Assembly: GCA_000146465.1 (NCBI GenBank)
Contig: CP001947.1
Length of the DNA stretch: 64,000 nucleotides
Strand: one strand, 5' to 3'
The position numbers were made by a program, and so were the translations under genes. The notes beneath the pieces were generated by a model. It made no database searches, was not told where the DNA came from, and saw only the letters and a list, made by a program, of their open reading frames with translations. Each line of letters opens with the position of its first letter. Position 1 is the first letter of the stretch. Below are positions 14,525 through 63,210 of the stretch, in pieces.

Positions 14525-15413
14525 ATGGTAAGTGGCACATGGTAATTTTAAGAGTAATGCAAAGGGGACCAGGAACTACCACAAGAACTTCCAGGTGAAG
14601 AGAAGAAGAAGACGAGAGGGCAAGACCGACTACAAGCACAGAACCAATATGATTCGACAGGATTCCAACTCATACGGGTCTGTGAAGCACAGGCTGGTTG
14701 TCCGGATTACAAAGAGCCGGGTGATTTGCCAGATCACAGGAGCCTACATGGATGGAGACCGAGTGATGGTGTATGCAGACTCGTCTGAGCTGAAGAAGTA
14801 TGGAATCAACTTTGGGCTTACAAACTACTCTGCAGCATATGCAACTGGATTCCTGATTGGAAGAAGGGCACTGACAGCATTGTCTCTGGATGGAGTATAT
14901 GGGCCCAAGGAGATTGACGGGACATACAGTATTACGGAGGATGTTGATGGAGAGAGAAAGGCGCCCAAGGTGTTCCTCGACATTGGACTTGCAAGGTCCA
15001 CAAAGGGAGCAAAGGTGTTTGGAGCAATGAAGGGAGCATCTGATGCAGGACTGAACATCCCACACAGCGAGGTGAAGTTCTATGGGTACCAAGAGGATGG
15101 GAGCTTTGATGCAAAGGAGCTGCACGACAGGATTTTTGGATACAACGTCTCTGAGTACATGCAGAAGTTGCGGGACAGTGATGAAGAGAAGTACAAGACC
15201 CAGTTTTCAGACTATATCAAGAAAGGCATCTCGGCCGAGGACATTCCACAGATCTACAAGAGTGCTCTGGACAAGATTGCATCAGACCCATCGAAGGAAG
15301 CAAGGGAAGTGAAGGACTACTCTTCGCTTAAGAAGTACCGGCCGGTTCGACTTACATATGAGGAGCGCAAGGAGAGGATACAGGCCAAGCTTTCCACGAT
15401 TGAGAGCGAATAA
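14525..15413 (+). CDS. RPL5: 60S ribosomal protein L5 (uL18); exon 1 is ATG 14525-14527, a 25-nt intron spans 14528-14552, and exon 2 is 14553-15413
   Basis: The ORF-track protein (from GTG 14532) is RPL5 ([15 protein letters not shown]...). In that frame a stop lies immediately upstream and there is no ATG. ATGGTAAGT at 14525 and TTTTAAG ending at 14552 restore the frame to give [28 protein letters not shown]. Confidence 0.85.
14528..14552 (+). other. Spliceosomal intron of RPL5, 25 nt: GTAAGTGGCACATGGTAATTTTAAG
   Basis: GTAAGT donor immediately after ATG, TAATTTT branch-like element, AG acceptor, frame preserved. Confidence 0.75.
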
Positions 15414-15511: not shown

Positions 15512-15583
15512 GACGGTGTGGCGCAATGGTAGCGCGTCGGATTCCAGTCCCGAAGGTTCTAGGTTCAAATCCTAGCTCCGTCA
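15512..15583 (+). tRNA. tRNA-Trp (anticodon CCA), 72 nt
   Basis: Hand-folded cloverleaf. D-arm GCGC/AATGGTA/GCGC, anticodon loop TTCCAGT, T-arm CTAGG/TTCAAAT/CCTAG. Near-identical to eukaryotic tRNA-Trp. Mismatches at acceptor 6:67 (U.U) and anticodon stem 31:39 (A.C). Confidence 0.7.
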
Positions 15584-39523: not shown

Positions 39524-40068
39524 TCAAGACGAGACTGCTCTGTTCGACAAGTTAAGTGCCTCTGCCTGCTCGGCAAGCTCTCGGGCTCTTTGCTCATCGG
39601 CCTTTCTCTTGATTATGCTATCTTTCATGTGGAATCTGTGCTTGAAAAGATGGCCCTTTGCCTGCTTGTAAAACACTCGGAAGTCTTCCTTGGTGATCTC
39701 TCCATTGGCCCTCATCTCCTTCAGCATCTTCCTCATTGCACGAATCTTCTTCATCCATAGCTCCTTCCTTGGCATTCTTGCATTGGCCGTACCAAAGCGC
39801 TTTCCAGGCCCCATGTGCCTCCCCTTCTTCTTGGCTGCCAGGCGCTTTCGGAGTCGTCCTCTGCTGGTGTGCTTGTCCTGCTTCATAATAATCACATTGT
39901 CTTGTATCAGCTGCCTAATCTGATCCCGAGTGGTTGCTCCGTTGAGCCTCTCAATTTCGTTGTTATCCAACCAAAGCTTCTTCTTCCCACATCCTAGGAT
40001 GTCTGCTGCCAAACGCCTGACTCTCTCCTCGTTCGACCTTCAAATTAGAAATGATCCATCACTTACAT
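39524..40068 (-). CDS. RPL19: 60S ribosomal protein L19e; exon 1 is AT at 40068-40067, a 29-nt intron spans 40066-40038, and exon 2 is 40037-39524
   Basis: The ORF-track protein (TTG start) is L19e but lacks the conserved N-terminus. AAAATGTAAGTG on the minus strand gives AT|GTAAGT...TTTGAAG|G. Splicing completes ATG and yields MSNEERVRRLAADILGCGKKKLWLD, matching the L19e N-terminus. Confidence 0.8.
40038..40066 (-). other. Spliceosomal intron of RPL19, 29 nt, sitting inside the start codon: GTAAGTGATGGATCATTTCTAATTTGAAG
   Basis: GTAAGT donor begins at the G of ATG, CTAATTT branch-like element, AG acceptor, frame restored. Confidence 0.7.
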
Positions 40069-48201: not shown

Positions 48202-49140
48202 ATGACGATGGAAATTAATAATAAGGAGGATGAAAATCTCTCTAGCTTTAAAAGGAATCTCAGGAAGATGATTCAACTGGAGGAGGAGGCCAAGAAGAGG
48301 AGAGAAGATCAAAGGTCCCGGAAGCTGGTCTCTATCAGGGTTGGGAAGATTGAGGGAATGGGAGAGTCACCTGAAAGAAAATTTGTTCAGGACAGGAAAA
48401 GGGTATTTGAAGAGCCAAAGGTGGAATATGAAGGAGAAGGAAAAGTAAGAGAGAGGATAGAAAGTTTCAGCAAGAAGGATGATGGTGTGGACGAAAGGAT
48501 TTTAGGCGAAGAAGAAAAGAAGGGTTTTGTTTATGATAAAGACCATGGAAGGAATGGAGAAGAGGCCCAAAACAGCACCAATGCTGAGAGGAAGGGTAGT
48601 GAGAGCCTGAAGATTGTAGAAGAATGTAAGATAAGTGTCAACAGAGAGGTATTGGAATCTGGACCTAAATATAAAGACGAAGAAGCAGAGGATGAATGCT
48701 TCAAAGAGATTTCCGTTGAAGACATCAAAAAGAGCCTCCTTGCAGAATTAGATTCGGAGAGGGAAAGTGAAGCAGATATCATAAGTACTGTGATGAAGTC
48801 TGAAAACTCAGCACCTTCGCAGCAGGAAGTTATATATGTTGACAGAGAAAGTAGTTCTTTGGAAACAGAAAAGAACCCATATAACATAGGGTGTAATGTA
48901 TATGCTTACGACATCCACTATAAGATCTCTGATCTGTCTTGGGGGAACCCATCTGGACATATAACTCCTAATGAAAAAGAACCATCGATTAGTAGCAACA
49001 AAAGTCCTGTAAGGGAACATGGAGACGTTAATCTGGAGGATGGACCTGTAACTTACCAAGATCTTGACGAGGAAAAGGAGGAGAAGGGATGGTTTTCTTT
49101 GATATTTGAGTCCGTTTTTTCTATCTGCTGTGGTAAGTAG
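48202..49140 (+). CDS. Hypothetical acidic (E/K-rich) protein
   Basis: 312-aa ORF with ATG start and a low-complexity charged sequence. Confidence 0.4.
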   Translation: MTMEINNKEDENLSSFKRNLRKMIQLEEEAKKRREDQRSRKLVSIRVGKIEGMGESPERKFVQDRKRVFEEPKVEYEGEGKVRERIESFSKKDDGVDERILGEEEKKGFVYDKDHGRNGEEAQNSTNAERKGSESLKIVEECKISVNREVLESGPKYKDEEAEDECFKEISVEDIKKSLLAELDSERESEADIISTVMKSENSAPSQQEVIYVDRESSSLETEKNPYNIGCNVYAYDIHYKISDLSWGNPSGHITPNEKEPSISSNKSPVREHGDVNLEDGPVTYQDLDEEKEEKGWFSLIFESVFSICCGK

Positions 49141-49236
49141 AAATAAAGAGTTGTAATAGTTTTTAGCTAAGCCTAAGGGTCTTTGTCTTTATGCATCCAA
49201 GTAATAAAATTTATAGACGAAAATTCTAGCCCTGAG

Positions 49237-52663: not shown

Positions 52664-53014
52664 TCATGCCAGTCCCTTTTCCTTTAGGAGCTCGTCCTCA
52701 ACTCTTTTCCTCAGCTTCATCTGGAATCTCTCGAAATCATTGGTTGTATCCTCCTCACTAATGCTTTCTGGAATGAGCTTTCCTATCTCTTCTGGACTAA
52801 GATCCTTAATGTCAAACGACTCATCCTCAAGGTGGAGATTAGATATAGAGCACATTTCCCTCTCTCCATCCTTCCTCTGGAGAAGTACAAAGGTTGCATC
52901 GATGATGCCAACAATTATGCCATATGTTTTTCTTTTTTCTTTGAGTGCAGGTGTCACAATCCTTCCCAGCCTTACTGTCTTCTAAAGTTAGCCAAAAAGA
53001 AGCTCACTTACCAT
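52664..53014 (-). CDS. RPL14: 60S ribosomal protein L14e; exon 1 is ATG at 53014-53012, a 30-nt intron spans 53011-52982, and exon 2 is 52981-52664
   Basis: The ORF-track 97-aa ORF begins at GTG with no early ATG. Its sequence (YGIIVGIIDATFVLLQ...NDFERFQMKLRKR) matches L14e. Upstream, ATGGTAAGTGAGC...GGCTAACTTTAG|AAG restores the frame to give MKTVRLGRIVTPALKEK..., matching the L14e N-terminus (FKRFVEIGRVALV). Confidence 0.8.
52982..53011 (-). other. Spliceosomal intron of RPL14, 30 nt: GTAAGTGAGCTTCTTTTTGGCTAACTTTAG
   Basis: GTAAGT donor directly after ATG, CTAAC branch-like element, AG acceptor, frame preserved. Confidence 0.75.
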
Positions 53015-53034
53015 TTTTAGGGCAAATTTTTGTG
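53015..53034 (-). promoter_or_regulatory. AAATTT/CCC upstream module of RPL14 (CACAAAAATTTGCCCTAAAA before ATG)
   Basis: Read in sequence. Almost identical to the RPL19 module. Confidence 0.5.
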
Positions 53035-53061
53035 TAGATTTAACCGTAGGAAAGTACACTG

Positions 53062-53379
53062 GTGAATCCCCAGGCACAGATGAAGATAACAGACTTGCAG
53101 AATGAGGTCAACCACCTCCTGTTTCTTTATTTCACATCTATAGGGGTCATCCAAAGAGATGCGGGACTAGGAGACATTTACGACAAGATGGAAGAGCTGA
53201 AGAGAGAGATTGATGACTGCCGAAAAAGGATTATGCGGCTCATGGACTCTGAGGAAGTGGATGTAGAACTCTGCAATGACTACAAAGAAATCATCACCGA
53301 GGGTAAGGAATTTGTGAGAGATGGGCTGAGTTTCCTTGACAAGCTTCTGAAGAAAGACTATGGACCTGGAAACTATTAA
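53062..53379 (+). CDS. MED21: Mediator complex subunit 21 (Srb7)
   Basis: 105 aa. N-terminal ITDLQNEVNHLLFLYFTSIGVIQ matches the Med21 signature (DRLTQLQDAVN..FCNAIGVLQ), followed by coiled-coil heptads. Confidence 0.6.
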   Translation: MNPQAQMKITDLQNEVNHLLFLYFTSIGVIQRDAGLGDIYDKMEELKREIDDCRKRIMRLMDSEEVDVELCNDYKEIITEGKEFVRDGLSFLDKLLKKDYGPGNY

Positions 53380-59749: not shown

Positions 59750-59822
59750 GGCCTCATAGCTCAATGGTTAGAGTGTCGGCCTACGGAGCCGAAGGTTGAG
59801 GGTTCGAGTCCCTCTGGGGTCG
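59750..59822 (+). tRNA. tRNA-Arg (anticodon ACG), 73 nt
   Basis: Hand-folded: acceptor GGCCTCA/TGGGGTC, D-arm GCTC/AATGGTTA/GAGT, anticodon stem TCGGC/GCCGA with loop CTACGGA, T-arm GAGGG/TTCGAGT/CCCTC, discriminator G. Confidence 0.85.
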
Positions 59823-62998: not shown

Positions 62999-63017
62999 TG
63001 TTTTTTTTCCTAGGCCC

Positions 63018-63210
63018 TACCTCTCAAGCCAATCGGCTTTGATCAAGTGTAGTATCTGTTCTTGCCAGTGTAAGAACTGGCATTATCCGTAAGGATAAAT
63101 TCATCGAATTTTTGGATGGCAGGGTGATGTAGAGGAGCTTGAGCGCTTGCGTTTCGGCCAATCTACTTGAGGTCTGCAGGCTTCTGGGCTGTAGAGCCTA
63201 GGAAAAGCCG
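63018..63210 (+). ncRNA. U2: U2 spliceosomal snRNA
   Basis: GATCAAGTGTAGTATCTGTTCTT at 63041-63063 is identical to the conserved U2 5' region, including the GUAGUA branch-point-interacting sequence. Stem I is AAGCC/AATC/GGCTT. Stem IIa is GTTCTTGCCAG..TAAGAAC..TGGC. Canonical Sm site AATTTTTGG at 63107-63115. 3' stem-loops, then a T7 run at 63211-63217. The 5' and 3' ends are approximate. Confidence 0.8.

Follow-up and report, generated by a model that had tools for sequence, protein, structure and literature searches.

An intron-split gene model for the highly diverged ribosomal protein eL14 at locus Eint_061145 of Encephalitozoon intestinalis

The locus at positions 52,664 to 53,034 of the window (the whole 64,000-nucleotide stretch of contig CP001947.1 analysed here) raises the question of how a ribosomal protein could be encoded by a reading frame that opens without a conventional start codon. 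The mechanical list of open reading frames contains a 97-residue frame that begins with GTG, and an earlier note had proposed that this frame is the larger part of a hidden RPL14 gene, that it has no ATG of its own, and that it is completed by a 30-nt intron directly behind an upstream start codon. Our analysis indicates that the locus is almost certainly a single-copy gene for the large-subunit protein eL14, Eint_061145 on chromosome VI of the microsporidian parasite Encephalitozoon intestinalis, and that it follows the intron-split model. The GTG-initiated frame is present exactly as described, the promoter module, the ATG, the 30-nt intron and the following AAG are exact in both coordinates and letters, and the proposed splice junction, 53012/52981, is the precise boundary between ATG and AAG. 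The claim that the frame has no ATG holds only upstream of codon 44, as in-frame methionines are present at Met44 and Met88. The features of the locus are as follows.

53034-53015, minus strand: upstream 20-nt string, CACAAAAATTTGCCCTAAAA
53020..53029, minus strand: promoter module, with an AAATTT-like box at 53029-53024 and a CCC-like box at 53022-53020
53012..53014, minus strand: exon 1, whose coding part is the ATG only; all seven orthologous loci have this ATG
52982..53011, minus strand: predicted intron, GTAAGTGAGCTTCTTTTTGGCTAACTTTAG, 30 nt, U2-type, phase 0
53011-53005, minus strand: donor of the intron, GTAAGTG
52991-52987, minus strand: branch site of the intron, CTAAC, with the branch A at 52988
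52983-52982, minus strand: acceptor AG of the intron
52664..52981, minus strand: exon 2, codons 2-106 and the stop codon TGA (52666-52664)
52664..52957, minus strand: 97-aa GTG-initiated frame of the mechanical list

Exon 2 opens with the codons AAG ACA GTA AGG CTG GGA AGG ATT GTG, with AAG at 52981, and the GTG chosen by ORF finders (52957-52955) is internal codon Val10 of the spliced protein. Joining the ATG to position 52981 yields a product of 106 residues, MKTVRLGRIV...KEKGLA (MKTVRLGRIVTPALKEKRKTYGIIVGIID...NDFERFQMKLRKRVEDELLKEKGLA). The intron contains an in-frame TAA and an in-frame TAG, and the unspliced message reads MVSELLFG-stop-L-stop, in which codons 9 and 11 are stops. Over 106/106 residues the spliced product equals AHL30120.1 (Eint_061145, E. 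intestinalis ATCC 50506), and therefore the deposited entry uses an identical splice model; the neighbouring 679-aa TPR protein is likewise an exact match to Eint_061160. The description of the gene as hidden is consequently true for ORF finders and first-generation annotations only, since the current public annotation contains the exact model. AHL30120.1 is named 'uncharacterized protein' in GenBank and 'Ribosomal protein L14E/L6E/L27E' in UniRef. Its interpolated tag (061145, between 061140 and 061150) and its AHL rather than ADM accession series suggest that Eint_061145 was added after the original 2010 annotation. A search of main texts for the locus tags ECU06_1215 and Eint_061145 returned nothing beyond the occurrence of ECU06_1215 in an expression table, and an exact look-up of the 106-aa product in the contig index was also negative, though the product is present in the cluster table. 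The gene model is already known, as are the mini-introns, the promoter module and the identification of the orthologue as eL14.

The intron was compared among seven loci, those of E. intestinalis, E. cuniculi (L001), E. hellem (L003), three further Encephalitozoon-type sequences (L006, L007 and L010) and Ordospora colligata (L005). The AAATTT...CCC module, the ATG, the donor, the branch site and the AG are present in 7/7 loci. The donor reads GTAAGTG and the branch site CTAAC across the loci, with GTATGTG and CTAAT in Ordospora, and the introns measure 30, 30, 30, 30, 32, 32 and 28 nt, with the branch A located 6 nt from the intron end in E. intestinalis and 6-8 nt from it in the orthologues. 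Splicing restores a 106-aa frame in all six translated loci (the seven less L010), and in the same six a stop interrupts the unspliced sequence within 11 codons, with a frameshift in addition where the intron measures 28 or 32 nt. In the deposited models for ECU06_1215 (E. cuniculi) and EHEL_061160 (E. hellem), a 106-aa product is spread over 351 nt, equal to 321 coding nucleotides plus 30, and the order of TPR protein, 99-aa gene, eL14, 139-152-aa gene and SAP-domain protein is conserved in both species. Mean pairwise identities among the five Encephalitozoon-type loci were distributed over the intron as follows.

Donor, first 7 nt: 100%
Intron interior, positions 8-18: 37%
Branch region: 88%

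Conserved splice signals around a variable interior are the signature of a spliced intron and not of coding or neutral sequence. A close characterized relative, ECU06_1215 (M970_061160) of E. cuniculi, shares 82% protein identity, the length of 106 aa, the arrangement of ATG, 30-nt intron and exon 2, the promoter and the flanking genes. It differs in the intron interior and in the branch site, which reads UACUAAC in E. cuniculi, whereas E. intestinalis has GGCUAAC together with a second in-frame AG at the acceptor (TTTAG/AAG). The GC-richer Encephalitozoon-like assemblies L007 (Logan SRR21633403) and L010 (ENA ERZ28580411) carry a 32-nt eL14 intron (…GGCTAACTTTGTAG), which shows indel turnover between branch site and acceptor.

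One alternative is that there is no intron at all, and that the gene is either the 97-aa frame from the GTG at 52957 or a frame with an internal ATG start such as that annotated in Ordospora colligata. ORF finders do return the GTG frame, the Logan calls P0001, P0004 and P0005 are 97-98 aa in length, and the deposited model of OCOL_000771 (GCA_052575955.1) comprises 90 aa from an internal ATG; the Logan contig with a 97-aa call (L008) is an unspliced, DNA-like sequence. However, the corresponding codon in Ordospora is ATC, and the loci share no internal ATG before codon 44. Codons 2-10, which lie upstream of the GTG, display variable columns in the proportion 3/2/8 at codon positions 1/2/3 as compared to 35/25/90 in the rest of the gene, and this same third-position bias indicates that the coding signature extends upstream of the GTG. 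An intron-less homologue from a distant, AT-rich microsporidian (L009) reads AAAAAATTTACCCA-ATG-CTT-TTT-GTT-GAA-TTA-GGA-AGA, with an ATG that corresponds in position to the spliced N-terminus; the product MLFVELGR aligns residue for residue with MKTVRLGR, so that the N-terminus is fixed independently of the splice prediction. The alignment of archaeal and plant L14e proteins also begins at position 1-2 of the spliced protein. In Ordospora itself, the upstream ATG (L005 1426-1428) and the 28-nt intron GTATGTGAATTCAATGCGCTAATTTAAG, which together occupy L005 1426-1456, restore a 106-aa eL14, so the OCOL_000771 model is truncated.

The upstream region also bears on where the gene starts. The promoter module lies 5 nt upstream of the ATG, reading AAAAATTTGCCCTAAAA-ATG, and places both boxes of a ribosomal protein promoter directly before the upstream ATG and not before the GTG. 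An AAATTT-like and a CCC-like motif in combination are the published signature of microsporidian ribosomal protein genes, and RACE data place E. cuniculi 5' UTRs at less than 7 nt (PMC2803860). Given such 5' UTRs, exon 1 of eL14 is probably at most about 10 nt long, and a start 57 nt past the ATG, behind an 8-codon upstream reading frame, would be atypical. Set against these observations, a gene without the intron appears very improbable, and we retain the intron-split model. Positions -20..-1 are 91% identical among the five Encephalitozoon-type loci (mean pairwise) versus 66% for positions -40..-21. In the window, the AAATTT...CCC module stands upstream of five ribosomal protein genes, including RPL5, RPL19 and two intron-less genes, and a AAAAATTTGC...CCC form is common to the upstream regions of RPL5 and RPL19. 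The two intron-less genes are the following.

42643-42359, minus strand: eL36, intron-less, with the AAATTT...CCC module (Pfam 44.9 bits)
42263-41802, minus strand: uS13/S18, intron-less, with the AAATTT...CCC module (Pfam 121 bits)

The ATG of eL14 is separated from that of the 99-aa Eint_061150 (ATG at 53080) by a divergent spacer of 65 nt, 53015-53079, within which a GTTAAATC block is conserved; 10 nt upstream of the Eint_061150 ATG there is a CCCC box. A 73-aa frame beginning with MSKTYLKVWKEKKQK (window 45637-45416, minus strand) is orthologous to msL2, a ribosomal protein specific to microsporidia (7qep_MS / ECU06_1135, E 1.9e-29), and its upstream region carries AAAAATATTTTT with no clean CCC box.

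The eL14 locus had been described as the third such gene in the window, and this count stands, as start-codon introns are present in RPL5 and RPL19 and both are already annotated.

14525..14552, plus strand: start of RPL5 (uL18), with the ATG at 14525-14527 and a 25-nt intron, GTAAGTGGCACATGGTAATTTTAAG, at 14528-14552; exon 2 extends to 15413
40038..40068, minus strand: start of RPL19 (eL19), whose start codon is split AT/G, with AT at 40068-40067
40066-40038, minus strand: RPL19 intron, GTAAGTGATGGATCATTTCTAATTTGAAG, 29 nt; exon 2 extends from 40037 to 39524

Spliced RPL5 (287 aa) is identical to ADM11690.1, the E. intestinalis 60S ribosomal protein L5, and scores 235 bits against Pfam Ribosomal_L5e; spliced RPL19 (171 aa) is identical to ADM11708.1, the E. 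intestinalis 60S ribosomal protein L19, and matches both Pfam Ribosomal_L19e domains. The intron consensus drawn earlier from these genes, GTAAGTG...(C)TAAYTT(T)NAG, was nearly right, but its optional-T form does not fit the L19 intron (TAATTTGAAG), while TAAYTT-N(1-2)-AG accommodates the eL14, RPL5 and RPL19 introns alike (3/3).

Shuffles of the 64-kb window were used to evaluate how readily such signals arise. The composite pattern GTAAGT-N(8-30)-CTAAY-TT-N(0-6)-AG occurs at two loci (three overlapping matches) against an expectation of 0.02, an excess that chance does not explain, and both loci adjoin the start codon of a ribosomal protein gene; a relaxed scan adds a third start-codon intron, that of RPL5, with the branch site GTAAT. 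The string ATGGTAAGT occurs twice in the window against 0.38 expected. The shorter string AAAATTTGC alone is not significantly enriched in the window (3 observed, 1.16 expected, with 14/100 shuffles reaching 3), and it is the position of AAAATTTGC and not its count that carries information. An intron look-alike of 34 nt, GTAAGTAG...GTAATAGTTTTTAG (GTAAGT...TAAT...AG, window 49133-49166, plus strand), is probably a chance match because it overlaps the stop codon of a 312-aa frame and lies in an intergenic spacer; this spacer precedes a frame for a YchF/OLA1-like GTPase.

The eL14 intron is a typical Encephalitozoon-type miniature spliceosomal intron, and its removal is predicted from these signals. 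Introns of E. cuniculi are 22-76 nt in length, of the GT-AG type, with strict donor and branch motifs, and disrupt the frame when retained, and RNA-seq verified every annotated one, 37 junctions in total (PMC3629993). The eL14 intron combines GT-AG ends and a GTAAGT donor with a CTAAC near the AG and a length of 30 nt, and it disrupts the frame if retained. In GT-AG ends, GTAAGT donor, CTAAC-type branch, the 22-76 nt size range and its extreme 5' position, it agrees with the mini-introns of Encephalitozoon ribosomal protein genes (PMC3629993), from which the comparison detected no differences. The machinery for branch recognition is represented in the same window.

63017-63209, plus strand: U2 snRNA gene (Rfam RF00004, 83.5 bits, full-length model match)
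63049-63054: canonical, intact GUAGUA branch-recognition box of the U2 snRNA

The GUAGUA box can pair with G-CUA(A)C of the intron, leaving the branch A (52988) bulged. Pairing of the E. intestinalis GGCUAAC with U2 is less complete than that of the E. cuniculi UACUAAC. The first account of the intron sets was probably given by Lee et al. (2010) together with Pombert et al. (2012).

Assignment of the protein to eL14 relies on the full-length match to a deposited ribosome structure and on the reach of a profile to plant and archaeal L14e, both of which bear out the identity originally suggested. A search of deposited PDB sequences matched residues 1-106 of 106 to 7qep_M4, the 'ECU06_1215 protein' of E. 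cuniculi, with an E value of 4.7e-53, and also matched the eL14 chains in 6rm3 and 6zu5 (E 7e-29 and 9e-19), from the V. necatrix and P. locustae ribosomes. The single sequence by itself gives a far poorer result, as Pfam Ribosomal_L14e (PF01929) scores it at 13.8 bits against a cut-off of 30.5 and only over residues 79-94. The C-terminal NDFERF motif, previously called diagnostic for L14e, is therefore suggestive and not diagnostic, and the sub-threshold score is the known reason why this eL14 escaped notice for so long (PMC8807834). A search of PDB sequences with profile A2, built from eight microsporidian orthologues, reached well beyond the microsporidia, with the following matches.

Microsporidian eL14: E 9e-58 to 1e-6
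Plant eL14: E 4e-5, profile positions 2-78 to residues 5-81
Archaeal L14e: E 9e-5, profile positions 1-80 to residues 1-85
Tetrahymena RPL14: E 5e-4, with trichomonad eL14 also matched

From the top of the list to E ~0.1 the chains are eL14 throughout and cover residues 1-100. One entry, 8p5d_LM0, was labelled 'Transposase' by its depositors, yet it occupies the eL14 chain position LM0. As the plant and archaeal alignments begin at profile positions 1-2, the spliced N-terminus matches the start of the family, in agreement with the proposal that it aligns with L14e.

One could instead regard the product as a lineage-specific microsporidian protein that resembles L14e only at a short C-terminal motif. 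Such a reading would explain the weak Pfam match at residues 79-94 and the GenBank name, and it finds some encouragement in the low identity (18%) that the E. cuniculi protein has with its yeast counterpart eL14 (PMC8807834). However, the orthologue was built into the eL14 site of 7qep (PMC8807834), eL14 is the name given to the chains in 6rm3 and 6zu5, and the profile returns plant, ciliate, trichomonad and archaeal members with no competing family above E ~0.1. We consider a lineage-specific protein to be hardly credible on this evidence and treat the product as eL14. This protein had been predicted to be lost from E. cuniculi, where its gene was annotated as a hypothetical protein, and cryo-EM demonstrated its retention (Nicholson et al. 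2022, PMC8807834); the rRNA-binding helices of eL14 degenerated after loss of the rRNA expansion segment ES39L (PMC8807834). By orthology and synteny with E. cuniculi, the E. intestinalis protein would be expected to occupy the same eL14 site. In comparison to canonical eL14/L14e (PF01929 plus an N-terminal KOW/SH3-like fold), the profile search recovers the N-terminal domain and the NDF(E/D)RF helix. The E. intestinalis protein differs in being very diverged and in having 106 aa, as opposed to about 130-220 aa.

Taken as a mechanism, these features suggest that transcription begins a few nucleotides before the ATG, under control of the AAATTT-like and CCC-like module, as the E. cuniculi data would lead one to expect. 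The primary transcript would then consist of the ATG followed directly by the 30-nt U2-type intron. A reduced spliceosome would recognise GUAAGU, CUAAC (via the GUAGUA of U2) and the first AG, 6 nt downstream, and splicing would join the ATG to AAG-ACA-GTA. The resulting 106-aa protein would serve as a shortened, highly diverged eL14 in a 60S subunit that lacks ES39L, and translation of any unspliced mRNA would end after 8 codons.

The efficiency of this predicted splicing is a separate matter. The intron might be mostly retained, making the locus a low-output or regulated gene in which retention throttles eL14 synthesis. In E. cuniculi, 30/37 introns are spliced at less than 50% and short introns at less than 20% on average (PMC3629993; PMC6349667), and the expression of ECU06_1215 (FPKM 87-115) is well below that of msL2 (ECU06_1135, FPKM 1226-2079) in the same table (PMC3629993). 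The less complete pairing of GGCUAAC with U2 would be consistent with this possibility. However, the authors of the E. cuniculi study saw little to suggest that inefficient splicing serves regulation (Grisdale et al. 2013, PMC3629993), and widespread retention would refine the intron-split model and not replace it. We therefore regard a mostly retained intron as a genuine possibility, albeit not the expected one, within the intron-split model for eL14.

A related feature is the tandem acceptor TTTAG/AAG of E. intestinalis (window 52979-52983, minus strand), at which use of the second AG would give a 33-nt intron, keep the frame and lose Lys2. Rare alternative downstream acceptors have been reported in E. 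cuniculi (PMC3629993). The orthologues with TAGAG at the acceptor have their second AG at +2, where its use would shift the frame. The +3 acceptor was rejected as the main site because it is not conserved among species. That the start-adjacent mini-intron gates eL14 output through inefficient or regulated splicing, with the tandem acceptor additionally generating two isoforms with and without Lys2, is conceivable but doubtful.

The value of the locus as a discovery is small, as the model is public and in 2022 cryo-EM had already identified the orthologue as eL14. The reading of the raw sequence alone nevertheless brought out a gene cut short by ORF finders, whose product had long been considered lost from Encephalitozoon; it arrived at the published conclusion independently, which validates this way of reading. 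In terms of curation, Eint_061145 could be renamed eL14 and OCOL_000771 should be extended by the ATG and the 28-nt intron. Prokaryote-style gene calls on microsporidian reads, exemplified by the 97-98-aa GTG frames, are systematically truncated. The window also contains two tRNA genes, a tRNA-Trp(CCA) at 15512-15583 (plus strand) and a tRNA-Arg(ACG) at 59750-59822 (plus strand).
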